From a virus, in the IMG/VR virus record IMGVR_UViG_3300010371_000028, positions 1-64,000 of that record: a stretch of 64,000 nt of DNA; one strand, given 5' to 3'. Below the pieces are notes generated by a model. It had not been told where the DNA came from, made no database searches, and saw only the letters and a list, made by a program, of their open reading frames with translations. The number at the start of each line of letters is the position of its first letter. Position 1 is the stretch's first letter. This document shows, in pieces, positions 20,144 to 63,685 of this stretch. A program made the translations under genes and the position numbers.

Positions 20144-21056
20144 CGCTGGCCCCGCTGTCCCTTGCCGGGCTTGCGTCGCCGCTCAGCCCGGTTCCCGAGA
20201 AAGGGCGCCGCTCCCGCGCCCGCTCGTCGTCCTCATCGGCGGAAGACGCGGCGCCCGCGTCGGCCTGGGCCAGGTGCTCGAGCACGTCATCCATCGGCAG
20301 CCGCTGGGTATCGCCCATCCGCTGCTGCGGTAGCGCCGCCGCGGCGAACACCGGATCCGGTACCCGCGTCTCCAACGACGACCCGTGGTCCTTCCGCGCC
20401 GCCCGCTCGATCTCCGCCGGGATGTCATGGCCGTTCTCACGCAGCCGCGAGAAGATCGCCCCGGTCTGCTCGGTCGGAGTCTCCGGCGGCGCGGGCGGGA
20501 ACATCGGCGGCTGGAGCGGCGCGATCGGCTGGCGCTGCTGCGACACAGCATTCGACGACGCCAGCGACGCCGGACCGGGCGGAAGCGCCGGCTGCACCAC
20601 CGCGGCGTTCTCCAGCCGGTCCGCACGCAGATACATCGACTGCGCATGCTGCGCCGCGCCCGCCAGATGCCGCTCCAGCCGCACCGCATGCATGTCATCG
20701 AGCACATCAAACGGCAACTCACCCTGCCGGACCCGCTCCACGAACTCGCAGATCGCCGCGACCGACGCCGTACCCTGCTCCGGGCCGCCCGGGTCGTGCC
20801 GCAGCGCGTTGCCCGGCCGCAGCACCGTCATCTCCTCACGCCCGTTGACTTGATCCGACAAGATGTCGAACGCGTCCTCCAGACGCCGGGTGTCGGCGCC
20901 CAGGTGCGCCGCGCGCGTCCGCTCCGACCGGGCCACCGCCACGGCGTGCGACACGTGCGCCGCCGCCTGCCGCTGCTCGGCCGCATGCTGCTGGTTTGCC
21001 TGCGCGGCCTGGTCGTGCTGGTTCCGCTCGCGCTGCGGATGCTCAGTCATGGTCAT
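20127..21056 (-). CDS. Hypothetical low-complexity/coiled-coil protein
   Basis: ATG coupled to the upstream stop; Gln/Ala- then Pro-rich. Confidence 0.65.
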   Translation of the reverse strand: MTMTEHPQRERNQHDQAAQANQQHAAEQRQAAAHVSHAVAVARSERTRAAHLGADTRRLEDAFDILSDQVNGREEMTVLRPGNALRHDPGGPEQGTASVAAICEFVERVRQGELPFDVLDDMHAVRLERHLAGAAQHAQSMYLRADRLENAAVVQPALPPGPASLASSNAVSQQRQPIAPLQPPMFPPAPPETPTEQTGAIFSRLRENGHDIPAEIERAARKDHGSSLETRVPDPVFAAAALPQQRMGDTQRLPMDDVLEHLAQADAGAASSADEDDERARERRPFSGTGLSGDASPARDSGASDDDES

Positions 21057-47911: not shown

Positions 47912-49141
47912 TCACAACGCCAGGTAGGAGGAGTCGACGATCGTCGCGGAGACCGTGTTGTTCGTGGACTGGTTCAAGAACGCCAGGTAGTTCAGCGACT
48001 CCATGACGATGTCCTCGGGCTTCGGGTCCTCCGAGTCCGTCTTGATGTAGACGTTCGGGCAGGAGAAGGAGGCCGAGCCGCCGTTCGTCGGGTGCGCGAG
48101 CGTGAAGCTCAGGACGCCGTGCCCGCCGTTCAGGGCCTGAGTCCAGTAGCCCCAGGTGGCGTCATCGAAACTCTGCCACACCAGGTCGATCTTCCCCGAC
48201 ACCTCGATCATGCCGGGGGTCAGGAACTGCAGGTTGTGCGACTGGTTGAACGTGTACGTGCTGATCAGGTGGTTGTCGATGTCCATCGTGAAGCCGTTGG
48301 CCTGCGCCACCGTCTGCCCGAACAGCGACAACGTGCCCTCCGCGAACACGTACGGCATCTCGTTGACCACCGCGACCGACGTCGGGGAGTCGAGCACCGC
48401 CGCGGACTGCGCGACCATGTCCGCCGACAGCGCCGCCTCGGCATCCGTCGCCGTCACGTTGATGCTGAGCTTGTTCACCCGCGAGCCCGCGAACAGGATC
48501 GACTGGCCGCCGAGAGTCGCCGGACCACCCAGGCACTTCTCCACCGTGTATGAGGAGAGCGCCACGGCCTGCTGAATCGAGTGCGTGAACGGCGCGGTGA
48601 CGACAGACACGGCGACGCCTGAAGCGTGCGCGTACGTCCACGGCGCATCCACCGTGCCGTTCGTGCCCGTCAACGTCGCGATCTTCCGGCACTCGGTCGT
48701 CGTCGGGGTCGTCGGAGAGTTCACATCCACCTGGACGATCGACCCGATCGCGTAGCCCGTCGCCGACGTCAGCGAGATCGCCGAGGAGTTCGCCGTGACC
48801 GGAGCGGCGAGAGTCGTCGCGGACGTCGGCGACGAGCCCGTCACCCCGTAGCCGGGCTGGGCATCCGGACCGATCGCGCCAGGGATCAGCGTCGCCGCGT
48901 TCGTCGGCCACACCGGGCCCGCCAACGTCCCCGCGTTCTTGAACTGCCCGTTGAGCGGATACGAGTTCTTGTCCCGGTGCCCGAACATCAGCGTCGGGGA
49001 GAACAGGCCCGGGTCGATGTTCATACCGTTGCCGGTCATCGGGAAGTACGTCGTCGCCGACAGCGGCGTCCCGAACACCGCCTCCTTGGCAAGGCCCGTG
49101 GCCGACATGGCCCCGAACTTGGCCGTCACCGCCGTGGTCAT
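47912..49141 (-). CDS. Major tail tube protein
   Basis: GLAKEAVFG...SYTVEK...GSRVNKLSI...IDNHL...VSGKID; position before the chaperone. Confidence 0.85.
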   Translation of the reverse strand: MTTAVTAKFGAMSATGLAKEAVFGTPLSATTYFPMTGNGMNIDPGLFSPTLMFGHRDKNSYPLNGQFKNAGTLAGPVWPTNAATLIPGAIGPDAQPGYGVTGSSPTSATTLAAPVTANSSAISLTSATGYAIGSIVQVDVNSPTTPTTTECRKIATLTGTNGTVDAPWTYAHASGVAVSVVTAPFTHSIQQAVALSSYTVEKCLGGPATLGGQSILFAGSRVNKLSINVTATDAEAALSADMVAQSAAVLDSPTSVAVVNEMPYVFAEGTLSLFGQTVAQANGFTMDIDNHLISTYTFNQSHNLQFLTPGMIEVSGKIDLVWQSFDDATWGYWTQALNGGHGVLSFTLAHPTNGGSASFSCPNVYIKTDSEDPKPEDIVMESLNYLAFLNQSTNNTVSATIVDSSYLAL

Positions 49142-51659: not shown

Positions 51660-52076
51660 CTAAGCCGAGGGCTTCGTTGCGGCAGCCTTGCGGGCCCGGG
51701 TGGCCGACTTCTTAGCCGGCTCGGGGCTCGCCGCGGCAGGGGCGGGAAGCGGAGCCGCCGGCGCGACCGCCGAGGCGACCTGCGCCATGCTCAGTCCTCC
51801 GCCGGCCAGGGCTGCGGCGAGTGCCGCGACCGACTGTGCGGCAACGGCGTCGAAGGTGGACTTCGCCGCCTCGGCGGTCTTCTGCTCCTTGTCCGTAAGC
51901 GGCACCTCGGACGGGACGCCGGCCCACAGCGGGTCCTTCGCCAGGTGCGGCTCGCAGCGCGGGCAGTCGACGGACATGTGCACATCGCCCTGGTCGGGCC
52001 GCTCGTCGTAGTGGTGGCCCGCGCAGGCGCCGCCAGGCGGCACGTAGGTGCGGATTCCGGTCTGTGCGTAACGCAA
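51660..52076 (-). CDS. Hypothetical protein with CxxC motif
   Basis: AGGAG-N6-TTG start; VDCPRCE. Confidence 0.7.
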   Translation of the reverse strand: MRYAQTGIRTYVPPGGACAGHHYDERPDQGDVHMSVDCPRCEPHLAKDPLWAGVPSEVPLTDKEQKTAEAAKSTFDAVAAQSVAALAAALAGGGLSMAQVASAVAPAAPLPAPAAASPEPAKKSATRARKAAATKPSA

Positions 52077-52085
52077 AGCTGGCTC

Positions 52086-52388
52086 CTAGGTGGTGTATCC
52101 GGGGGGCGGCAGGATGACGATGGTGACGTCCGGCGGCGTCGCCCCGGCTACTACCGCGGTCAGGCCGGCGTGGAGACGGATGTCGTACGGGAGGGCCACC
52201 TGCGCTGTCGCCGCGATTGCCGCGATCTCGGGGTGCGCGGTGTCGGGCCCGTCGTAGAGGGTGACTGTCGCGCCGCTCTGGCCCGTGTTGATGGTGACGA
52301 GGTGCAGGATGGCGCCGGGGTTGACGTCGAGGTTCTGGGTGCCGGCTGCGTTCAGGTGGAACGCGGCGCCGCCTACGGCCGTGCTGAT
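52086..52388 (-). CDS. Small beta-rich virion-associated protein; inferred ATC start
   Basis: AGGT-N5-ATC AGC ACG; no in-frame ATG/GTG/TTG for about 60 further codons; ILHLVTINTG...VTLYDG. Confidence 0.65.
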   Translation of the reverse strand: MSTAVGGAAFHLNAAGTQNLDVNPGAILHLVTINTGQSGATVTLYDGPDTAHPEIAAIAATAQVALPYDIRLHAGLTAVVAGATPPDVTIVILPPPGYTT

Positions 52389-52696
52389 ACGCCACCTGCT
52401 TCCGGGGTCTTGCGGGGCCGGCGCCCGGGCGCGAGCGGTTCCTGGCACTTGGGGCAGTCGGTTTGCCAGGCGTAACCCACGAACGTGCATGCCGGACAGT
52501 GCGTCGAGGACGTCTTGAGGGGCGCGCTGTAGACGGCGCGCGCGATCATTCCGCCGGATTCGTCCGAAGCGCGCATGATCTCTCGGACGTGTTCGGGCCG
52601 GTCCACCGTGAGGCGTCCGGAGCGGGTCGCGTTGTAGCGGGAGCCGTCTTGCATCTGCAACCCGGTGCAGCCGGGGGGGACGCGGAGTTCGGGCAC
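52373..52696 (-). CDS. Hypothetical protein with C-terminal zinc ribbon
   Basis: AGGA-N6-GTG; CPACTF...CPKC. Confidence 0.7.
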   Translation of the reverse strand: MPELRVPPGCTGLQMQDGSRYNATRSGRLTVDRPEHVREIMRASDESGGMIARAVYSAPLKTSSTHCPACTFVGYAWQTDCPKCQEPLAPGRRPRKTPEAGGVSARP

Positions 52697-52728
52697 GAGG
52701 GTTCCTACCGTTCGGGTTCGTTCGCTAG

Positions 52729-52762
52729 CCGCGTCCGGCCGGGGCTCCCCGGCCGGACGCGG
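52729..52762. terminator. 16-bp perfect hairpin just after the capsid gene
   Basis: ccgcgtccggccgggg ct ccccggccggacgcgg. Confidence 0.7.
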
Positions 52763-52777
52763 GTGCCGCATGGGCGA

Positions 52778-54583
52778 TCAGCTGTAGGTGCCGCCGTTGC
52801 CGACGGTGGTCTTCTGGATGCCCTGCAGCAGGCCGTTGTACTGGACCGCCGGGGAGAACAGTGCCCCGTACATGAACAGGCTGTAGCGGAAGGTCACGTC
52901 CACGACGGGCCACGAGATGGACAGGTAGTCCTGGACCATCACGTTCTCCCACACGTTGCCGACGTTCGTCCACGGCTGCGGGAGCTTGTAGGACAGCGCC
53001 ATGGCGGTGCCCTGCGGGATGTACGGGTGAACCCGGAGGTTCATCACCTTGCGCGTCACCGGGTTGGTGTACTCGCTGACGGCGACGCCGCCGCGCACAC
53101 CCCCGACCTCGCTCTGGTTGATGAAGAACCGGTAGTTGTTCGGGTTGGCCTGGTTGTTCTGGTTCGCGAGCGAACCGGCCAGCCGGGTCAGGTCGCCGCC
53201 CTCGGCCCACAGGTCGTCCGGGTCGGCGAAGATGCCGTTCGGGCCGTCCCACATGCCGGTGAGCATGTTGTTGATGGCGTTCTCCGACAGGATGTCGCCG
53301 ACGGAGTCGTTGACGTACGAGCCCTGGTAGCCGGACGGGTAGACGGCGGAACCGCCGGACGCCGAGTGGCCGGAGATCGTCGGGATGAAACCCTCGTAGT
53401 CCGTGGTCGCCGAGGTGCCGGTGTCGGCGGTCGGCGGGGTCGCAGTCCCGGTCGGCAGCGCGCCCTGCAGGGTGAAGCGGGTCGCGCCGACGGCCGAGGC
53501 CATCAGGTGGAAGCCGCTGTTGGCCGGGGCGGCCGTGCCGGTGCCGACGTAGACGTTGTAGGCGAGCGCGCCGTTGGACGGGCTGATCAGCACGTCGACC
53601 ACGTTGCCAGCCGACCAGGCGACGGACGCGCTGGAGGAGCCCGCGGTCTCGCCGTAGTAGTTCAGCGCCGTGACGATCACGTACACGTTCGTGGTGACGC
53701 CGGACAGCGCCGTCTCGCCGCTGCCCGCGGCGCGAGCCGTGAGACCGGGCGTTCCCGGGGCCGACAAAGCGATCGAAGTCGCGCCGATCATGGCGCGCTC
53801 CTCGAGGACCATCATCTCCTGCAGCAGCACCAGCGACGCGAGCCCCGCGGCGTCGTCGAACCCCTGACCGGCGAACTGCGCCAGCCAGGAAACCGCCTCG
53901 GTCAGGCCGAAGAACTTGTACGGGACATTGACGTCCACGGCGGTCTGCGACCCGGAGGCGGGCAGCTGGTTGGGCCAGTTGTTGCCCGCGATACCGCCGC
54001 CGGCAGGCAGCTCCGGGATCGAGATGCGGTTGGAGGTCACGCCGAGCTGGCCCGGCAGCGCGCCGGAGATCGAGGTCATGACCTTCGCCCGGTGCACGGT
54101 GCCCTGGCCGGGCACACGCGGGATCAGGTTCCGCAGCGGCGAGTAGACCGGGTAGATCAGCTGCGTCGGCGCCGTCAGGTCGAACGGCACCAGGCCGGTC
54201 GCGTTCGGCGAAGTCAGCGTGATGGACTTGCCCAGTTGCGCGGACAGCTGGTCGTTCAGCTGCGACACGAACTGGTTCATCGCGTAGACCTGCGGGCTGT
54301 TCTGCATCGCCATCGACAGGGCGTTGCCGAACGCCGGCGACAGCGACTTCAGGACGGTCGCCGGGTCGGACAGGCCCTTGCGGATGGCCGACTTGAGCAG
54401 GTGCTCGGCGGCGTAGGCCTGGTCGTCCTCGCTGGCGCCGACACGGCGGCCCTTGACGAGGGCGGGGATGCGGCGGGAGATCGCGTCTCCGTAGCCGCCG
54501 TTGCGAACCTCGCCGAGAACCGACTTCGCAATGACGTCGGTGTTCGCCTCGCTCGAGATCTGCTCGATGGTTGCGCGCGTTAT
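52778..54583 (-). CDS. Major capsid protein, about 601 aa, inferred ATA start
   Basis: LVPFDL.AP...SPLRNLIPRV.GQG...YK.FGL...; the frame stays open and codon-adapted for 90 codons upstream of the ORF-track ATG (54313), up to AAGGAG-tggcat-ATA. Confidence 0.85.
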   Translation of the reverse strand: MTRATIEQISSEANTDVIAKSVLGEVRNGGYGDAISRRIPALVKGRRVGASEDDQAYAAEHLLKSAIRKGLSDPATVLKSLSPAFGNALSMAMQNSPQVYAMNQFVSQLNDQLSAQLGKSITLTSPNATGLVPFDLTAPTQLIYPVYSPLRNLIPRVPGQGTVHRAKVMTSISGALPGQLGVTSNRISIPELPAGGGIAGNNWPNQLPASGSQTAVDVNVPYKFFGLTEAVSWLAQFAGQGFDDAAGLASLVLLQEMMVLEERAMIGATSIALSAPGTPGLTARAAGSGETALSGVTTNVYVIVTALNYYGETAGSSSASVAWSAGNVVDVLISPSNGALAYNVYVGTGTAAPANSGFHLMASAVGATRFTLQGALPTGTATPPTADTGTSATTDYEGFIPTISGHSASGGSAVYPSGYQGSYVNDSVGDILSENAINNMLTGMWDGPNGIFADPDDLWAEGGDLTRLAGSLANQNNQANPNNYRFFINQSEVGGVRGGVAVSEYTNPVTRKVMNLRVHPYIPQGTAMALSYKLPQPWTNVGNVWENVMVQDYLSISWPVVDVTFRYSLFMYGALFSPAVQYNGLLQGIQKTTVGNGGTYS

Positions 54584-54614
54584 ATGCCACTCCTTTCCGG
54601 GGTGGTCAGGTGCT

Positions 54615-56963
54615 CTAGCTGAGCAGCTTGACCGCCAGCTCGCGGCCGGCAGTCTTCATCAGTTCATCGAGGGCGGGAAGGGCGATCCCCTGGTCGGGGT
54701 CCTTCGCCTGCTTGACGAGCCTCACGAGCCGCTCCGTACGCGCAGCCTCGTCCCCGCCCGCGGGGACCTCCTGGCCGTCGTGCTTCGCCTTGGTGAGACT
54801 GGCCCCGGACCGCGGCGCCATCTGCGCCGGGTCGGGGGACGATTCGAACTCGGCGATCCTCGCCTCGAGGTCGCCGATGGTCTTGGTGAGGTCACCGAAC
54901 TGGTCGGCGACGAGGTCCCGGATCGTGGACTTCAACATCTCCGGGTCGATGAGGGGCCCCGCGGTGGCAGTGGCGGCCGGCGCGGCGGCTTCCTGCGCGG
55001 GGTTCGCGGCGTTGGCCATCTCGGCCTCCTTCGTGACGTGCGGGGTGACGAGGGACGCGGCGTGCGCGGCGTCGACCGGGATCGGCGTGCTCGTCGCGTT
55101 GGTCTTGCCGAACTGCTGCGGGACGGGCGCGCTCGCGGCGGGAGAAACGCCCATCGCGCCGTGCGCGGACTCGCCCATGGCGCACACGCCCGGGTGCTGG
55201 CCGGCGATGTAGTCGTGCATCGCGGCGAGGACGCCCTTGGCCTGCTCGCGGGCCGCGGTCGTGTAGTAGGTGCGCGCGTCCTTGGCCGCCGACCCGGGGG
55301 ACGCGGCTTCGCGCCCGGCCGTGATCAGAGGGCGCTTGAAGTCGTCGGGGTTCGGAACGTGGCTGGCGAGGGGGATGCGCGGCTTCTGGCCGGAGCCCGC
55401 CGTCTGGTTGGCGCGCCCGGCGGACACATACGGCCGTTCGAACTGGCCCGGGGTGATGCTGCCGGGCTTCACGTGCACGTCCGGGTAGTAGTCGGCGAAC
55501 GCCTTGCGGAGATCCGTCATGGCTTCGGCCATCAGGCCCGAGTCGGCGGCCTTCAGGACCGCGGCGAGGCTGTAGGCGTGCGAGAGGCTGGGCAGCGCCA
55601 TGGCCGCGCTGGCGGAGTCGCCGGCGGTCAACGCCGCGGAGATGGAGGCTGCGAACACGTCGGGGTCGGCGATGTGCGCGAGGCCCTTCGATACGGCGGG
55701 GTGAGCGGCGATCACGTCGTCGGCGCGGTATGCGGCGCAGGTGGCGTCGTGCAGCCGGGCCAGGTGGTAGGCGGCCGGTCCCGCAGCGCTCTTGGTGGCG
55801 TGCGCGGCCGGCGAGTCGGTCGCCTCGTCCTTGTCCTGGGCCGCAGCCGCCGTCTGCACGTCCTCGCGCACGTTCTCGAGCGCCTGGGCGACCATCTGGT
55901 CGGCCGGGTGAGTGGTCGCGTCGGGGTCCTTGGCCTGGGCGGCGAGCGCGGCGTCAGCGTCCTGCTCAAGCCGGTCGATGGCGCGTTCGACGTCCGTGTC
56001 GGCGGTAGACGGCTTGGCTGCCTTCTTCATGGCGGTGCCGCACTGGGCGCAGAACTTGTCGCTCTTGCGCATCGGGGCGTCGCATTCCGAGCAGTTGCCG
56101 GCCTTCTGCGCCTGCGCCTTCTCCGCCGAGTCGTCGTCGGAGTCGCCCTCGTCCTCGGCGTCGTCGGGCTCGCTGCCGTCGTCGCCCTCGAACGGCTTGG
56201 CCGCGCCCTTGAACGGCGGCTTGCCCTTCTCAATCTCGTCGCCGGCCTTGGCCGCAGCCGGCTCGCCTGTGGGCTCGGCGTCCTTCTTCGCGTCGTCGTC
56301 CTTCACGTCTTCGCCCTTCCACGAGTCGGGGATCTTCGCTTCGAATTCGGGCCCCTTGCGGCGGGCGATAGCCATGGCACGCTGCTTGATCTTCTCGGGG
56401 TCGCCCTTGATGTCGTGGTTCAGGTTCGGGGCGATGTCCGCGACGTCTTTCGGGGTGACGATCGGGAATGCGCGGTGCTCCGGGTCGGCGAAGTCCTCAG
56501 TCGGGATCTTGTCGCGGTCCACTCCGCCGCCGACGTTCCGATCGAAGTCCCGCTTGGCGACCTCGCGGACCGAAGGCTCTGCGGTGAGTTGCCGCTTGAG
56601 CGCGTTCAGCTTCGCCAGGTCGCGCGGGGAGAACGACACGGACACGTCCGCCGGGAGCTCCACCGTCACCGTCTCGGCCTCGATCGCCTTCGTGGCGCCC
56701 TGCGCGGGCGCTGGCGCGTCCTGGCGGTCCGGTTCGGTCATGACGGCGGCAATATGCCCCTCCTGGGTTTCTGCGGCGGCCACGTTGGCCGCCGGATTGA
56801 TCTCGGCAACGTCAAGGGCCTTCATCATGAGAATGGGGAATCCGTTTGCCGGCGTACCGACACCATCCACGCGAGTCGGGTCGAACTTCTCCAACTCGGT
56901 GATCTTCTCCAGGTCATCGCCGGCCTCCCCCTGGTTTCCGACCCCTGGAAACGCTGCGGCCAT
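54615..56963 (-). CDS. Large capsid scaffold/maturation-associated protein
   Basis: AGGAGG-N6-ATG; RVDGVGTPANGFPILMMK, a DUF6582-like FADPEHRAFPI segment, CSEC...FCAQCG ribbon, acidic/Ala-rich coils. Confidence 0.75.
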   Translation of the reverse strand: MAAAFPGVGNQGEAGDDLEKITELEKFDPTRVDGVGTPANGFPILMMKALDVAEINPAANVAAAETQEGHIAAVMTEPDRQDAPAPAQGATKAIEAETVTVELPADVSVSFSPRDLAKLNALKRQLTAEPSVREVAKRDFDRNVGGGVDRDKIPTEDFADPEHRAFPIVTPKDVADIAPNLNHDIKGDPEKIKQRAMAIARRKGPEFEAKIPDSWKGEDVKDDDAKKDAEPTGEPAAAKAGDEIEKGKPPFKGAAKPFEGDDGSEPDDAEDEGDSDDDSAEKAQAQKAGNCSECDAPMRKSDKFCAQCGTAMKKAAKPSTADTDVERAIDRLEQDADAALAAQAKDPDATTHPADQMVAQALENVREDVQTAAAAQDKDEATDSPAAHATKSAAGPAAYHLARLHDATCAAYRADDVIAAHPAVSKGLAHIADPDVFAASISAALTAGDSASAAMALPSLSHAYSLAAVLKAADSGLMAEAMTDLRKAFADYYPDVHVKPGSITPGQFERPYVSAGRANQTAGSGQKPRIPLASHVPNPDDFKRPLITAGREAASPGSAAKDARTYYTTAAREQAKGVLAAMHDYIAGQHPGVCAMGESAHGAMGVSPAASAPVPQQFGKTNATSTPIPVDAAHAASLVTPHVTKEAEMANAANPAQEAAAPAATATAGPLIDPEMLKSTIRDLVADQFGDLTKTIGDLEARIAEFESSPDPAQMAPRSGASLTKAKHDGQEVPAGGDEAARTERLVRLVKQAKDPDQGIALPALDELMKTAGRELAVKLLS

Positions 56964-57031
56964 CGTGAACCTCCTGGCGATCATTACCCTGAAACAGGGC
57001 GTGGTGGAGTTCGAATTCGGTAGAATCTGAC

Positions 57032-58516
57032 GTGGCTACCAATGCAGAGAAATCGGCGTTAGCCGAACGGGCTTTCCTGGCACGCCTCGCCGAACTTGGC
57101 GTCATGCCGGACTACGAAAAGTGGGAGGGCACGGGGCGCCCCCACAAGGCAATCTGCCGTGTGGGCCACGAGTGCTATCCGTACCCCTCCGCGATCCGCA
57201 AAGGAATCGGGCCGTGCAGAGCCTGCGCCGGGCAGGACCCGCGCATGGCAGAGGCGGCGTTCCGGAACCGCCTCGCCGAACTGGGAGCCGCCCCCGTCTA
57301 CGACACCTGGCTCGGTGCGCGCAAAGGCCATGCCGTGATCTGCAAGAACGGGCACGCGTGCCATCCGACGCCCGATGCGATCCGCGCAGGAAACGGTCCC
57401 TGCAACACCTGCGCCGGCACGAACAGTGCGGCGGCCGAACGGAACTACAAGGTCCGGCTCGCTGAACTCGGAGCCGCGCCCGCCTGGACCGCCTGGATCG
57501 GCGCCGCGAAGCCTCACAAGGTCATGTGCCCGCAAGGGCACGAATGCTCCCCGATCCCTTCGGGCGTCATGGGAGGCAAAGGCTTATGTCGGACATGCGC
57601 CCGGCTCGACCCGCTGGTAGCCGAAGTCGCATTCCGACGGCGCCTCGACGAACTCGGCGTCGTCGCCGAATGGGCAACGTGGCGCGGCAATCACGCCAAG
57701 TACCAGGCAACCTGCGCTGCCGGGCACGAGTGCTGGCCGCGCCCTGACCACTTGCGGCGAGGCGACGGGCCCTGCCGCGCCTGTGGGAAGTGCGACCCCG
57801 TCGAGGCCGAGGCCCAGACCCGGCGTCGGCTGGAAGCATCCGGCTTCACGCCGGCTTGGGAACAGTGGGTCGGTGCAGGCCGCCCCCACAAAGTAGCCTG
57901 CCCGGCCGGACACGAGTTCCCCATGTACCCGTCCGCGCTGGCGCGGAGAGGGTGTACGTGCCCTCATTGCGCCGGCACGACTCCGGAAGCGATCGAGAGC
58001 GTCTTTAGGGATGCCGTCGTGAGGCAGGGCGCCACCCCAGCGTGGGGCAGTTGGCTAGGGAGCAGCCAGGGCCACAGGGTCATCTGCAAGAACGGGCATG
58101 TGGTCTACCCCAGGCCGAACGGTGTCGGGCAGGGGCGTGGCGTCTGCCGGTTCTGCAAGGGCCGGGCTTGGGACGTCTTCTACGTCGTGGTCAACGACGT
58201 GAAGCGCGAACTGAAATTCGGGATCACGAGCGGCGACCCCCGGGGGCGCCTTGCCGTCCACAGGAACCGCGGCTTCTCGCATGTGGCCCTGATCGCCGCG
58301 ACTCCGCTGGCCCTGAAGATCGAAACCGCGACGAAGAGAGCCCTCCGCGCCGCCGGACACCGGCCCGCCCACGGCAGGGAGTACTTCGGCCTTGACGCCC
58401 TGGAAGAAGTCTTACAGGTGGCGATCAGCTACGGACTCGAAGCCGGGATCAGTCGCGAAGACTGGCCAGGGCGTCCTGGGACGGCTCTCGCCTTACGGCC
58501 GAGCCTTGCATGCTGA
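57032..58516 (+). CDS. Six tandem zinc-finger repeats plus GIY-YIG/T5orf172-like nuclease domain (free-standing homing-endonuclease-like)
   Basis: Six 62-aa C-x3-H-x15-C-x2-C repeats; C-terminal FYVV...KFGITS..PRGRL..H...IE...GREYF. Confidence 0.85.
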   Translation: MATNAEKSALAERAFLARLAELGVMPDYEKWEGTGRPHKAICRVGHECYPYPSAIRKGIGPCRACAGQDPRMAEAAFRNRLAELGAAPVYDTWLGARKGHAVICKNGHACHPTPDAIRAGNGPCNTCAGTNSAAAERNYKVRLAELGAAPAWTAWIGAAKPHKVMCPQGHECSPIPSGVMGGKGLCRTCARLDPLVAEVAFRRRLDELGVVAEWATWRGNHAKYQATCAAGHECWPRPDHLRRGDGPCRACGKCDPVEAEAQTRRRLEASGFTPAWEQWVGAGRPHKVACPAGHEFPMYPSALARRGCTCPHCAGTTPEAIESVFRDAVVRQGATPAWGSWLGSSQGHRVICKNGHVVYPRPNGVGQGRGVCRFCKGRAWDVFYVVVNDVKRELKFGITSGDPRGRLAVHRNRGFSHVALIAATPLALKIETATKRALRAAGHRPAHGREYFGLDALEEVLQVAISYGLEAGISREDWPGRPGTALALRPSLAC

Positions 58517-58973
58517 CCCCGCGGATCTTGCCGCTCTTGATGAGTTCCCAGGTCTCCGGGGTCCACTGGATCCCCAGGAGCCAGTCCCCGGACTTGATCG
58601 TCTGCGTTGTGCCGTCGGCTGCGGTCAAGTGCCAGTCGGGGCCGCGATAGACATACGATTCCACAACGTTGCCGCTGCCATCCGTGCCCTGCTGATGCCA
58701 CAGCCCCACCGAGCGCGACTTCAGCATGTAGGACCACGCCGCATCCTCGACCGCCTGCGGGCCTGCGAAGTCGCGGAAGCCGTCCGCGGCCACGCCGGCA
58801 TCCGGCTTGTTCGCTGGATACGCGACGTGCAGGGTGAAGCGGCGATCAGGCTGCGACTTCACGACGCGGGCGGCGATGCCCATGCCGTCCCATACGTCAG
58901 GCTGCGCGTCCTTGACGACTTCGCCGCCGTCGATGACCACGCGCTCGGTGCCGTCTTCGATAGTGACGCGCAG
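58449..58973 (-). CDS. XkdF-like putative prohead protease; inferred CTG start
   Basis: HVAYPA..PD..D...VEDAAWSYM...GLWH...VVESYV...GDWLLG...WELIKSGKIRGVSMQG; AGGAG-ctgcat-CTG. Confidence 0.8.
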   Translation of the reverse strand: MRVTIEDGTERVVIDGGEVVKDAQPDVWDGMGIAARVVKSQPDRRFTLHVAYPANKPDAGVAADGFRDFAGPQAVEDAAWSYMLKSRSVGLWHQQGTDGSGNVVESYVYRGPDWHLTAADGTTQTIKSGDWLLGIQWTPETWELIKSGKIRGVSMQGSAVRREPSQDALASLRD

Positions 58974-58982
58974 ATGCAGCTC

Positions 58983-59588
58983 CTACCTGGTTTCGAGCCG
59001 GGTCAGCAGTTCGGTCCAGTCCGCGAAGGCGCGGACGTTCGGGTACTGCCGCCAGGATTGAGGGGTCCACGGGCGTATCGGCGTCCACACGTCGACACCG
59101 GGCCGGGCGATGGTGAGCCACTTCGCGGGGTCATCGTCGATCAGGACGGCCGGATTCATGGGCCCTCGGGCGGCGAGCGCCATCGTTTTCGATGTGGGAC
59201 CGTCGAGGATCTGCCCGTCGCGCGGCACCGCGCTGGCGTCGAGCCACTTTTCAGTGGCGGGCGCGGTGGACGCCGGGCGGTCCGAGGCGATGAGGACCCG
59301 ATGTCCGGAAGCGCGCACGGTTCGCAGCGCCGCGATGGCTTCGCGGTCCGGGGCGAGGTTGAGGATCCACGGGTCGCGTGCGGATTGGGCGAGCAGCCAT
59401 CTCTTCTGGTCTGGCTCGAACAGGTTCACGTACGGGTAGGCGCGCATGTCCGAGACAAGATGCGAGGAGCCGAAGCGCGCGTTGACTGCGGTGCAGCCGG
59501 CTTCGACCTCCTGCGCGAGTACGTTGTCGATGTCGCACACCACGAGCGGTCGTGTCGCCTCGGCCGCGAAAACGGCACCGAGATCCAC
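58983..59588 (-). CDS. HAD-superfamily 5'(3')-nucleotidase-like phosphatase
   Basis: VVCDIDNVLA, IASDRP, VLIDDDP, FADWTEL; GGAGG SD before GTG. Confidence 0.8.
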   Translation of the reverse strand: MDLGAVFAAEATRPLVVCDIDNVLAQEVEAGCTAVNARFGSSHLVSDMRAYPYVNLFEPDQKRWLLAQSARDPWILNLAPDREAIAALRTVRASGHRVLIASDRPASTAPATEKWLDASAVPRDGQILDGPTSKTMALAARGPMNPAVLIDDDPAKWLTIARPGVDVWTPIRPWTPQSWRQYPNVRAFADWTELLTRLETR

Positions 59589-59599
59589 GCGGCCTCCCG

Positions 59600-60076
59600 T
59601 CAACGGCGGTCGTAGTCGTGCAGGTGCAGCGAGCGCTTGTGCACGTGCGGCCGATAGCCCAGGGTCCGCAGTAGCTGGGACAGGCGGGTATCGAGCCGGT
59701 GCCAGTCCTTGGCCGGGGACCCGTCGCCATCTACATCACCGAGCCGGCCCATGAGACCGGGATGGCGAGTTTTGAGCCTGCCCGCCAGTTTCACGCAGCC
59801 GAGCCCGTCCTGGAGCCACGTGTGCTCGATCCGGTACGGGCTTGTACACCACGGCCGGGCGCAGGCCCCCATGGCGGCGGTAACACCGTCGGCCGGAAGC
59901 ATGTCGTGCTCGATGAGGATCAGGTCACCTGGGCGGTCCCATTCGGCGGCGAGGAGGCGCCAGTAGGCTTCGACGTCTGCGTCGAGTTGGCAGATTCTCG
60001 CACCCTCGGCCTGCGCCCACCTGCGGGTCGCTTCGTGCAGCATGCCGGGTGCTGCCGCAACGATGGCCACCGTCAC
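59600..60076 (-). CDS. Small GT-A-like glycosyltransferase
   Basis: YWRLL..EW..PGDLILIEHDMLP...GLGCVKL...DW.RLD..L; DxD-like EHD motif. Confidence 0.6.
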   Translation of the reverse strand: MTVAIVAAAPGMLHEATRRWAQAEGARICQLDADVEAYWRLLAAEWDRPGDLILIEHDMLPADGVTAAMGACARPWCTSPYRIEHTWLQDGLGCVKLAGRLKTRHPGLMGRLGDVDGDGSPAKDWHRLDTRLSQLLRTLGYRPHVHKRSLHLHDYDRR

Positions 60077-63000
60077 ACCATGTCCGATGCGCCGAGCCGG
60101 TACCTGACCACCTCGCTGTCGCCGCGATGGACGGACAGGTGCGTGAAGGTCACGGGCAGCGCCGGCAGCGGATCCGGCAGGCTATCACCAGCATCGACGT
60201 AGGCCCTGGTGACGTGCGGATGCCAATCCGCGTGCTCGCTGGCCGAGAGGTCCGCTAGGTTCGCTCGTAGTTGCTCGGCGCCGGGGAGAGTGACTCCGGC
60301 CCATACGACGGTCTTGCCGTCGCTGGAGTCGGACGGTTCGAAGGTGCCGAGTCCCGAGACGATTCCCGTCAGCGGTCCCGGCGCGGACGCGGCGGCTCGT
60401 GCGGCGCGTGCGCACGCGAGCGCGAACGCGTCGTCGTCGACGTCAGGCCCGAGATATGCGACGGTCACATGGAAGTCGGCGACTCCGCCGGGGACCGGCT
60501 CGATCAGCGCTTCAGGCAGATCCAGCGAGATCATTCCCGATTGCGCGTTAAGACTGTATCCGCGCGCTGCTTTCACCGTGTCCGAGGAGTCCTCGGCGGG
60601 GACGAAACGGCAGGAGCAGCGGCAGTTCGGGCCGCCGAGGCACACGTTTCCTCCGAACCCGCCGTCCCCGGGCCAGCCGGGCAGCGTCTTGAGTGTGAAC
60701 GTCTTGCCCGCCCGGTCGACGCAGGGCCCGCAGTGGTCCTTCGCGTCCCCGAGTTCCCACACGATCGTGTAGGTGGGGTGCGCGTCCATCACGGTTCGGC
60801 CGTAAGCCTGGTTGTACGCCTTGTACAGGGACGCGGCGTACTGGGCGAGACGCGCCCCGATCGCGGCGAGCGACAGTCCCGCGACGACGTCCTGGATCAG
60901 CCCCATGAGGTAGCCGCGCTGCCGTTCGGCTTGCTCGCCGGCATCGTCGTCGAGGTCGTCCTCGTCGATGGGCGGAGTGTCCTCGTAGTCTCCGGACGCG
61001 TCCGTCGTGCCGGCTGCCATCGCCTTCCGGTACCCGGCGGCCATCGCCCGCACTCCGCCGTCGACGGCGTGCGGAAGGGACAGGCCCGCGTTCTTGTGGT
61101 CGCGCACCAGTTGTCCGAGGTGCGCCGCCACGGCTGCGGCAGCCGCTTCCAGGTGTCGTTCGCGCCGTTCCTGCCGCTGCTTGGCGTCGGTGGCGTCCTT
61201 CGCGGCCTTCACTGCGGCGGGCACGCCCTGCGGGAGCATCCGAGCGGCAGCTTCCACGGCTTCGACGGGAAGCGCTTCGGGTCGGAACCGGGCAAGGTCG
61301 CGGCCCTTGCGCAGGTAGCGGCCGAGGATCTCAAGCTCCGCCTTCTGTGCGGCTTGTTCGGCGGCCTGCGCCTCCGCGTCTGCTGCGCCTGCGCTGCCGG
61401 GGGTGTCCGGCAGTCTTTGCGCCGCCTCGTGCGCCGGTGTCGTCAGCGAGTCGTCCGAGACCTGCGCCGACGCGTCCGGTACGGCGCCGGGCACGCCCGG
61501 GGCCTGGGGCTGTTCGCTGGCGATCGCCGAGAGCGGTACCGGGCCGGTGGCGGTGAACACGAGCGGCACCGAGGTCTCGGGCAGCCCGAACGGCGTCCAC
61601 CCGAGTTCGCCGCGGAACTCGTCGATCGTCTGCACGCCGCCCTGGGTCAACTGCACGCCCTGGTCGATCAGCGACTGCCGGTTCTTGCCGCGGTCCGTCA
61701 GGCCCCAGGACCATTCCATGTCCTTCTGCCCGAAGACTTCCCGGATCACGAAGTCGAAGATGACGGTCTTGAGTGCCGCGCACACCGGTTCAACGCGGGT
61801 CTGCGACCCCTTGTCCGAGTTGATCTGGGAGAGTTCCTTGGATTCGGACGGCGACTGCACTGCGGAGACCCGCGGGGTGACGCCGAGGTCCATCGGCGTC
61901 AGGCCGAACGGCATCGCCACCTGGGAGATGATCCACTCATCGAACTGGTCGGCGAGCGCGACCGGCTTCTGCGCCTCGGCTTTCGACCCGGGCGGCAGCA
62001 CCACGATCCGGTGCTTCGCCCCGATGTCCCCGGCCATCGCGTTCAGCGCATCCTGCAACTGCCGGATCTGCTGCGGGGTGGAGATGTCCGGGCCCGGCGT
62101 AATGAACTGCCCGGGAATGGAGCCGTCGGTGAAGTAGTCGTTCTGGAACTGCTGACGCGCCAGACCGATCGAGATCGGGAGGAGCGCCTTCTCCACGAGC
62201 GACTGCCCGTACGGGGTGAACGCGCGCGGCGTCTCCCTCATGTAGATCAGCTGGTCGGCGCGGAAGTCCGCGACGGGCTCGCTGAGTTCTTCGAGGTCGT
62301 CCCCGTTGATGACCGACAGGAGGTCGACGCGGGGTACGCCCCACACGAACTGCTGGTAGCCCACGGCGGACGGCCTCGGCGTCTCGCCGAGCGTCGAGAT
62401 CAGCGGCCTGACGGTGGACCCGTCGATGAGGTTGAGCGCGGCGAGGTCGGAGCCGAACGGGCCGGCGCCCTTCTTGCGCGGCGGCACCAGGTGGATCGCG
62501 ACGGCGTCGAGGACGAACCGGTCTTCGAGCAGCGCGCTCAGCCACGCCCCGAGGGTCGGATACTTGGCGCGGTCGGAGTCGGGGTGGCTGAAGAAGTCGA
62601 GGACGATCGCGCGCCGCTTCTCCCAGTCGGCCCGCAGACTCTCGTCCCCGGCCATGGCGTGCTCGGCCTCAGGCGTGGGAATCACGTCGGGTTCGAGACC
62701 GATGATCTCCGCCTTGCGCTTGTCGACGCAGGAGCGGGCAACCGAGTACATGTCGGCGACGGCGCGCAGCGTCGCGAACGGCGCGAGCTTGAGTCCTTCG
62801 CTGCCCGGCTGCCCGACGGGGAGGTTGTAGCCGGGCTCGTACTGGTATCGGCGGACGTCGGGCCGGTGGGTGTCCTCGCGCGGCGGGTCGATCGGCATGG
62901 CCGTGACTGGCGCCATGGGGCCGAACGCGCCGTTGAGGAACACGGGGGCGGGCCGGGGCAGCGGCGAATACGGCACGGAGGCGCTGTAGCCCTGCCCGTA

Positions 63001-63111
63001 TGACGCGACCAGCGGCGAGAGTCCGCCCTGGCCGGTGCTGCCGCTACTGCCGGCGTTGTTCGCTGCGGCGAGTACGGCTGCCGCGATCGCGTTCCCTTTC
63101 GGCACGGCCAC
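60073..63111 (-). CDS. Portal protein fused to MuF-like and 2H-phosphoesterase domains
   Basis: Portal core (LIDGSTVRP, YGQSLVE, YFTDGSIPG), then HCGPC...GGPNCRC, then HVTVAY and HPHVTRAY. Confidence 0.9.
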   Translation of the reverse strand: MAVPKGNAIAAAVLAAANNAGSSGSTGQGGLSPLVASYGQGYSASVPYSPLPRPAPVFLNGAFGPMAPVTAMPIDPPREDTHRPDVRRYQYEPGYNLPVGQPGSEGLKLAPFATLRAVADMYSVARSCVDKRKAEIIGLEPDVIPTPEAEHAMAGDESLRADWEKRRAIVLDFFSHPDSDRAKYPTLGAWLSALLEDRFVLDAVAIHLVPPRKKGAGPFGSDLAALNLIDGSTVRPLISTLGETPRPSAVGYQQFVWGVPRVDLLSVINGDDLEELSEPVADFRADQLIYMRETPRAFTPYGQSLVEKALLPISIGLARQQFQNDYFTDGSIPGQFITPGPDISTPQQIRQLQDALNAMAGDIGAKHRIVVLPPGSKAEAQKPVALADQFDEWIISQVAMPFGLTPMDLGVTPRVSAVQSPSESKELSQINSDKGSQTRVEPVCAALKTVIFDFVIREVFGQKDMEWSWGLTDRGKNRQSLIDQGVQLTQGGVQTIDEFRGELGWTPFGLPETSVPLVFTATGPVPLSAIASEQPQAPGVPGAVPDASAQVSDDSLTTPAHEAAQRLPDTPGSAGAADAEAQAAEQAAQKAELEILGRYLRKGRDLARFRPEALPVEAVEAAARMLPQGVPAAVKAAKDATDAKQRQERRERHLEAAAAAVAAHLGQLVRDHKNAGLSLPHAVDGGVRAMAAGYRKAMAAGTTDASGDYEDTPPIDEDDLDDDAGEQAERQRGYLMGLIQDVVAGLSLAAIGARLAQYAASLYKAYNQAYGRTVMDAHPTYTIVWELGDAKDHCGPCVDRAGKTFTLKTLPGWPGDGGFGGNVCLGGPNCRCSCRFVPAEDSSDTVKAARGYSLNAQSGMISLDLPEALIEPVPGGVADFHVTVAYLGPDVDDDAFALACARAARAAASAPGPLTGIVSGLGTFEPSDSSDGKTVVWAGVTLPGAEQLRANLADLSASEHADWHPHVTRAYVDAGDSLPDPLPALPVTFTHLSVHRGDSEVVRYRLGASDMV

Positions 63112-63168
63112 CCCCGCCTGTGTGACGTGAACGGCACAAGGATCTGGCGATCGTCGGCTTGCTGCCGG

Positions 63169-63621
63169 TTACGCGGCGGCCGGTTCGTCCTGCCATGCCG
63201 CGGCTTCTTCGAGGTCTTCACGCCAGAGCACCTGGTCTTCGGGCCACTCGCCGTGCCGGAAGTAGGTGACCCGCTGCACTCGCCCGTCAGGGTGGTATTC
63301 GAGTTCGGAGACCGCCGGGCATTTGCGCGAATGAAGGCCGAGGCAGTGCGGGCAGCGCTGCTTGTCGAACACGGTGGTCTTCAACCCGGCGACGCCTGGG
63401 AAGGGCGGGGGCTCGTCGACCACCTGCAGGAGTTGGCGGGCAAGAGCAGGGTCGAGGCGCAGCGCGGCCCGGGCCGAGCCTCGCCGCCGTTCGTCGCGGC
63501 GCGCTATGTAGGCGTTCTTGGCGCGCCTGGCGTGGTGGCGGAGCCGGTGGCCGTGGCGGCCCAGCTTGTCGTAGAGGCTGCCCGGCCAGCCGAGCGGGGC
63601 GCGGATCACGTCGGTGAACGT
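63169..63621 (-). CDS. Zinc-binding hypothetical protein; inferred ACG start
   Basis: CPHCLGLHSRKCP; GAGGAGG-N5-ACG in frame, whereas the first GTG is 17 nt from the SD. Confidence 0.6.
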   Translation of the reverse strand, partial: TFTDVIRAPLGWPGSLYDKLGRHGHRLRHHARRAKNAYIARRDERRRGSARAALRLDPALARQLLQVVDEPPPFPGVAGLKTTVFDKQRCPHCLGLHSRKCPAVSELEYHPDGRVQRVTYFRHGEWPEDQVLWREDLEEAAAWQDEPAAA

Positions 63622-63685
63622 CTCGGCCTCCTCGCGCTGTCATGATGGGCGGGTGAGTAGAACTTCGGCCCGCGGCGGCGAACCG

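Follow-up and report, generated by a model that had tools for sequence, protein, structure and literature searches.

Near-cognate codons at the starts of capsid and other virion genes in a soil virus and its relatives are probably genuine, inherited translation starts

The major capsid gene and other virion genes of a virus recorded from a soil metagenome appear to begin at near-cognate codons that differ from ATG by one base. The genes lie in a stretch of 64,000 nucleotides (the window), which comprises bases 1-64000 of the 132,777-bp virus record IMGVR_UViG_3300010371_000028; a check for RNA runs on this DNA found none listed. The guanine-plus-cytosine (GC) content of the window is about 69%, and its head-tail module is located on the minus strand at 47.9-63.6 kb. 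From the comparison of sequences, we consider it probable that these codons are genuine, inherited translation starts in two sister clades, that they are read by the initiator tRNA of the host, and that their purpose is most likely a tuning of protein output that is sensitive to initiation factor 3 (IF3). The genes concerned and their predicted start sites are as follows.

52778-54583, minus strand: major capsid gene, 601 amino acids; start ATA 54583-54581, with no in-frame ATG, GTG or TTG until 54313
54584-54595, minus strand: ribosome-binding site of the capsid gene; AAGGAG 54595-54590 and a 6-nt spacer ending with T at -1
58449-58973, minus strand: XkdF-type prohead protease gene (Peptidase_S78_2), 174 amino acids; start CTG 58973-58971 behind TAGGAG 58985-58980 and 6 nt
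52086-52388, minus strand: 100-amino-acid head-module gene; start ATC 52388-52386; overlaps the end of the upstream gene by 16 nt
63169-63621, minus strand: 150-amino-acid pre-portal gene; candidate start ACG 63621 behind GAGGAGG; alternative start GTG 63609

An earlier note on this DNA had listed near-cognate codons behind Shine-Dalgarno (SD) motifs, and all of the listed sites were found on the minus strand: AAGGAG, 6 nt and ATA at 54583; TAGGAG, 6 nt and CTG at 58973; GAGGAG, 6 nt and ACG at 63621; TAGGAG, 6 nt and TTG at 52076; and AGGT, 5 nt and ATC at 52388, where the SD is weaker. The distances to the next in-frame canonical start were also as described, with 90 codons for the capsid gene, 11 for the protease gene, 4 for the pre-portal gene and 63 for the 100-amino-acid gene. 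The same applies to the scarcity of ATG: among the ten minus-strand starts from 63621 to 52076 there is one ATG, or at most two. In this order, we assigned ACG or GTG, GTG, GTG, TTG or GTG, CTG, ATG, ATA, GTG 52696, ATC and TTG. GTG 52696 aligned to an ATG in the related contig L103, and ATG 52771 is an alternative candidate for this gene. In the capsid, protease, 100-amino-acid and pre-portal genes, the odd codon, one base from AUG, aligned exactly with the ATG or GTG start of the homologues. Such agreement exceeds what chance would give.

In a screen of the whole record (132.8 kb), the capsid gene was the sole open reading frame (ORF) that combined at least 20 coding-type codons before the first canonical start with a strong SD at a near-cognate codon. 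The GC content at third codon positions (GC3) was 1.0 in the last 30 codons before its first canonical start. Tblastn matches to relatives cover the capsid protein from residues 1-27 onward, and thus show protein-level conservation of the 90 codons ahead of the first ATG. In L103, the closest relative (87% identical), 13 of the codon changes within this stretch are synonymous and another 12 are mostly conservative; by codon position, the differences number 10/5/18, with a concentration at the third. The 22 nt directly before the ATA are identical in L103. In the relatives, the codon at the ATA position is GTG, ATG, TTG, CTG, ATC or ATA, each 3-6 nt behind an SD.

The identity of the 601-amino-acid protein was addressed by structure prediction. 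An AlphaFold2 (AF2) model based on a 56-row alignment reached a predicted local distance difference test score (pLDDT) of 73 and a predicted template modelling score (pTM) of 0.67; an earlier model from 13 rows (pLDDT 45) was unusable. Foldseek matched the model to the phage capsid proteins Pa223, SPO1 and SU10, with E-values down to 9e-8 and a probability of 1.00. Judged from this model, the protein is an HK97-fold major capsid protein. Its gene sits downstream of portal, protease and scaffold-like genes. The N-terminal extension (the first approximately 120 residues) is predicted to be helical, with low model confidence, and might be removed by cleavage in virions. A profile search of PDB sequences and NCBIfam gave no match, and no cultured phage was closer than 25-31% identity. 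The capsid homologues of contigs L065, L080, L087, L084 and L140 are interrupted: the tblastn match either extends over 2.2-2.7 kb or begins anew near residue 130-150, and the L140 gene is in two pieces about 300 nt apart. The interruption could be an intron, an intein or an endonuclease insertion.

The protease matched Pfam family PF14550 with an E-value of 6.5e-15 (55.7 bits, curated cut-off 24). In an alignment of 30 homologues, most start with M exactly at the L encoded by the CTG and one with V; homologues with L at this position were pipeline calls that were too long or too short. The CTG is present at the same place in five further contigs (L103, L104, L138, L139 and L140). Homologues of the 100-amino-acid gene start with M at the position of ATC 52388, and the L103 gene has the same ATC and leader, followed by synonymous differences downstream. 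For the pre-portal gene, ACG 63621 is only a candidate start, with GTG 63609 as a possible fallback: the ACG aligns with the ATG of the homologues, and L104 has GTG in its place.

These alignments bear on the possibility that translation begins at the next canonical codon (M54313 in the capsid gene, V58940 in the protease gene, GTG 63609 in the pre-portal gene) and that the stretch upstream is an untranslated leader. Gene callers and the PHROG profile do begin near those codons, and one pre-portal homologue begins at the later position. However, protein conservation and a third-position bias extend over the upstream stretches, and no SD was found before the downstream in-frame canonical codons of the four genes. 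Downstream initiation would also deprive the 100-amino-acid protein of 63 of its 100 residues, and the lysin of a related genome (G003, see below) of part of its catalytic domain. We regard it as very unlikely.

Four start codons one base from ATG within one module would also fit a mutated element, in which case the codons would stem from errors of sequencing or assembly, or from start losses private to an element in decay. However, a second assembly of the source run was identical over 52000-59100, and a contig from a different study was identical over 54445-54736, including the ATA. The same or other near-cognate codons were present in related contigs. L103 has the ATA, CTG and ATC of the window, L003 has ATA at the capsid gene and L104 has CTG at the protease gene; L138 combines capsid ATA with protease CTG, and L139 and L140 combine capsid ATC with protease CTG. 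None of the ORFs is disrupted, and purifying selection acts on all of them. The alignment of homologues that the earlier note had proposed as a check thus found near-cognate codons conserved at the same positions in related contigs. As judged from these sequences, the near-cognate starts are inherited, and are neither damage nor error; the probability that we assign to an artefact or to decay is practically negligible.

The capsid comparison comprised 56 distinct genes, for which a tree was calculated; three high-GC relatives fetched later were added to the counts for clade A. All near-cognate capsid starts fell within two well-supported sister clades, with GC contents of 41-70%. In total, 14 distinct capsid genes start at CTG, ATC or ATA, and their nearest kin start at GTG, ATG or TTG. 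Clade A, to which the window belongs, comprises four genes with ATA, three with ATC, two with GTG and one with ATG (including the three later additions). Clade B (metagenome contigs, GC 41-52%) has CTG six times and ATC once, and its two basal members have TTG and ATG. Among the remaining 40 members, 37 start with ATG, GTG or TTG, and the starts of L119, L121 and L122 were not resolved. In L119 (2340-2460), neither a canonical codon nor a one-base variant stands at a working distance from the SD. In L121 (254-350), AAGGAG and an 8-nt spacer with TTT at its end precede an ACG, and an ATG comes three codons after it. Two members of the sister clades are actinobacterial genome or metagenome-assembled genome (MAG) records.

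Near-cognate starts in clade B are not confined to the capsid gene. As in the capsid gene, CTG is the start codon of the scaffold and tail-tube genes and, in two complete genomes (G002 and G003), of the portal gene. Upstream of the CTG are GGAG, 0-3 bases and TTT, and clade-A orthologues have ATG or GTG at the aligned position. Tail-tube orthologues have CTG in four low-GC relatives and TTG in one, and the portal homologue of L123 starts at ATA. In G002 (88 kb), 4 of 123 ORFs were flagged, namely portal, scaffold, capsid and tube, all with GGAG-TTT-CTG. In G003 (97 kb), the same four genes were flagged, together with an NlpC/P60 lysin gene and one further gene. The lysin gene starts at ATA, and its first canonical codon is 61 codons in, inside the domain (residues 22-116); the further gene has an ATC at the position where its orthologues have GTG. 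Terminal repeats are present in at least one of the relatives with four CTG starts, a phage of 88 kb. More than 95% of the other ORFs in the low-GC clade show no such start. The statement of the earlier note that early and tail genes use ATG, GTG or TTG is correct for the window, but it fails in the relatives, where the tail tube and a lysin use weak starts. Two more genes of G003 deserve mention. A 376-amino-acid gene at 58153-59346 on the plus strand (equivalent to L135:18153-19346) has a candidate ATT start behind AGGAG-ATTT, and a Sak4-like gene at 73822-74601 has a possible ATC start, which its domain does not need.

The low-GC clade also provides evidence on selection. Clade-B capsid genes have diverged almost to saturation at four-fold degenerate sites, where they share only 35-60% identity. 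CTG was nevertheless kept at the capsid start in six of the seven genes, and none of the seven has ATG or GTG. With scaffold, tube and portal genes included, the 19 instances comprise 17 CTG, one ATC and one TTG, and again no ATG or GTG. Since a single change converts CTG to ATG, yet ATG is absent across this saturated divergence, the weak codon itself appears to be favoured. These counts support the conclusion that selection maintains near-cognate starts in the low-GC clade.

The main alternative is neutral drift under a lenient host. The starts would then be real but without regulatory purpose, and host leniency, a very strong SD or coupling to upstream translation would allow any near-cognate codon to wander neutrally. 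The six different codons at the capsid start across relatives are in line with drift, and so is the placement of all sites in tight operons, at most 60 nt from the stop of the upstream gene. Drift does not, however, readily account for the clade-B counts at nearly saturated four-fold sites, for the restriction of weak starts to a few virion and lysis genes among the 120-140 ORFs of each genome, or for the specific common leader of the weak starts with T at -1. On balance, we consider drift unlikely, and prefer selected starts.

The T at -1 was found at nearly all weak starts, compared with 15 of 67 canonical SD-linked starts in G001 and G002. The exceptions are the protease CTG of L139 and the doubtful ACG 63621. 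In AUG reporters in E. coli, initiation is enhanced by a U at position -1 of the mRNA, which forms a base pair with A37 of the initiator tRNA (PMC10018350). The T at -1 of the weak starts resembles this quadruplet pairing; the codons here are CUG, AUA and AUC, unlike the AUG of the reporters, and a rescue by U(-1) in the phage hosts is only putative. Taken together, the sites look as if a strong SD and a fourth base pair were supporting a weak codon. The ATA and ATC leaders of the window (54584-54602 and 52389-52407, minus strand) have a 19-nt pattern in common, which is conserved in L103. This pattern was derived post hoc; it had 2 matches compared with 0.56 expected, 10 of 100 shuffles also reached 2, and it is not significant. 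The motif GGAG-NN-GCAT-NTR was rejected as a signal: its third match, at 20664-20676, falls within a coding ORF by chance.

The phage genomes examined contain no initiator-like tRNA gene (the window and G002 have no tRNA genes at all, G003 has only tRNA-Asp, and G000 has two tRNA-Gly), and no IF3 homologue was found in them. Therefore, the weak codons must be read by the initiator tRNA of the host. Presumably charged as fMet-tRNA, it would begin the capsid protein at AUA, the protease at CUG and the 100-amino-acid protein at AUC, and it may begin the pre-portal protein at ACG. A strong SD 3-6 nt upstream would assist, as would the U that is usually present at -1, through a possible fourth pair with A37. 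IF3 is the factor that rejects such codons (PMC9723500). Because IF3 rejects near-cognate codons, the output of the weak-start genes should track IF3 stringency. The weak codon would thus most likely tie the synthesis of self-assembling late proteins to IF3 proofreading, and this dependence would tune or delay their output and not simply cripple it. The efficiency of the starts and their purpose (IF3-sensitive tuning or gating) are both matters that we infer.

Ribosomes might also enter these frames by another route, such as a scaffold-capsid frameshift fusion, initiation at an out-of-frame GTG within the SD followed by a shift, or a phage initiator tRNA with a matching anticodon. The capsid ORF does share 41 nt with the scaffold ORF, in the -1 frame, and a GTG is located 7 nt before both ATA 54583 and ATC 52388. 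However, the overlap contains no slippery heptamer, and the scaffold and capsid ORFs of L015 do not overlap at all, so that the fusion was rejected. The GTG is absent from L003 and from all clade-B leaders, and the shift was rejected as well. As to the phage tRNA, none with initiator character is present in the genomes examined, and the codons are heterogeneous, so that one tRNA could not serve all of them. We give these routes hardly any credence.

The earlier note had interpreted the module as a translational gate, in which head assembly needs relaxed start-codon fidelity. We retain this interpretation in so far as the near-cognate codons appear to be real starts, or at least the only ones available, and are conserved and concentrated in virion and late genes; to this comes the apparent selection for them in the low-GC sister clade, where CTG is retained while synonymous sites are near saturation. 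The support does not extend to a gate that needs relaxed fidelity, or to a silencing of head genes in a lysogen. Neither a phage-encoded initiator-like tRNA nor a phage-encoded IF3 that could relax fidelity was found, and the strong SD and the U at -1 resemble compensating features by which initiation would become more efficient.

Several observations weigh against selected, IF3-tuned starts. In reporter studies, E. coli initiates at such codons at a few percent of the AUG level or less, which would be odd for the most abundant virion protein. Scaffold and tube genes of the window's own clade use ATG, and the close kin L001 (a prophage of Arthrobacter terricola JH1-1), L018, L002 and L005 do well with GTG or ATG, so that the weak codon is not obligatory. 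At the protease CTG of L139, the base at -1 is C. ACG 63621 has G at -1 and is followed four codons later by GTG 63609, the position at which one homologue starts.

A broader proposal, which we hold only tentatively and as a possibility, is that of a lineage-wide programme. Virion and lysis genes would be marked by a strong SD, a short U-rich spacer, U at -1 and CUG, AUA or AUC, and their translation would be conditional on the proofreading state of the host. If this were true, the condition could be the IF3-to-ribosome ratio or an unrecognised phage factor, and the lineage would possess a post-transcriptional late switch that requires neither a phage tRNA nor a phage initiation factor.

Near-cognate starts are known as a kind. 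IF3 discriminates against the AUU starts of E. coli infC, which encodes IF3 itself, and of pcnB, and the output of these genes depends on IF3 activity. The starts described here resemble them in that a one-base variant of AUG stands at the true start behind an SD and is conserved among relatives. They differ in that several genes per genome are affected, all of them late or virion genes of phages, in that the codon varies (CUG, AUA, AUC and perhaps ACG), and in that the dependence on IF3 is only putative. In eukaryotic viruses, weak non-AUG starts set the ratios of capsid proteins, and VP2 of adeno-associated virus (AAV) starts at ACG. There, too, a virion protein has been given a weak start codon, but the AAV case involves eukaryotic scanning and a minor protein, whereas the most abundant proteins are concerned here. 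What appears to be new, as far as sequence comparison can tell, is the conserved and selected use of such codons, with a recognisable leader, in the main virion genes of a phage lineage; a search of the literature on non-canonical starts in phage and capsid genes found no description of such use.

Standard gene callers are blind to these starts, with consequences for annotation. The capsid protein is called 27-90 residues short, and the PHROG profile for the capsid family begins about 88 residues late. The public calls P0122, P0146, P0004 and P0003 are wrong owing to weak starts, with the pre-portal gene and the protease gene truncated. Errors in the other direction also occur: public calls extend the 100-amino-acid gene to 134 amino acids, into its neighbour, and some records extend the protease upstream. 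Contrary to the usual expectation, the most abundant virion proteins would rely on the weakest class of start codons, apparently kept by selection, and the findings point to a layer of translational control for late genes.

From its upstream end, the head-tail module consists of the 150-amino-acid gene, a portal gene with a 2H-phosphoesterase-like domain, two small enzyme-like genes and the XkdF-type prohead protease gene. A plus-strand antisense ORF, the 782-amino-acid scaffold-like gene and the 601-amino-acid capsid gene follow. At the downstream end are three small genes and connector-like genes, a tail tube-like gene and the tape measure gene. The features of the module that were not listed above are as follows.

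60073-63111, minus strand: portal gene fused to a 2H-phosphoesterase / RNA-ligase-like domain; GTG start; assigned from Pfam and PHROG matches and the L104 start context
54615-56963, minus strand: scaffold-like gene, 782 amino acids; ATG 56963 behind AGGAGG and 6 nt, the only clear ATG start of the module
51660-52076, minus strand: 138-amino-acid gene; TTG 52076 (canonical but weak) behind TAGGAG and 6 nt
47912-49141, minus strand: tail tube-like gene; ATG start in the window; Phage_tube_2 in relatives

In the alignment, L103 carries ATG where the 138-amino-acid gene has TTG 52076. The C-terminal domain of the portal protein (60073-63111, minus strand) is similar to 2',5' RNA ligases and 2H phosphoesterases (PF13563, E-value 1.6e-7), and the portal proteins of relatives carry NUDIX fusions instead. 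The antisense ORF between the protease gene and the scaffold-like gene (57032-58516, plus strand) encodes 494 amino acids and had no match in Pfam or NCBIfam. L104 also carries an antisense ORF after the protease gene. Other selfish elements were observed near the module in relatives, namely a LAGLIDADG element in L105, and an Endonuclease_7 together with a Hint intein in the portal gene of L106/L140.

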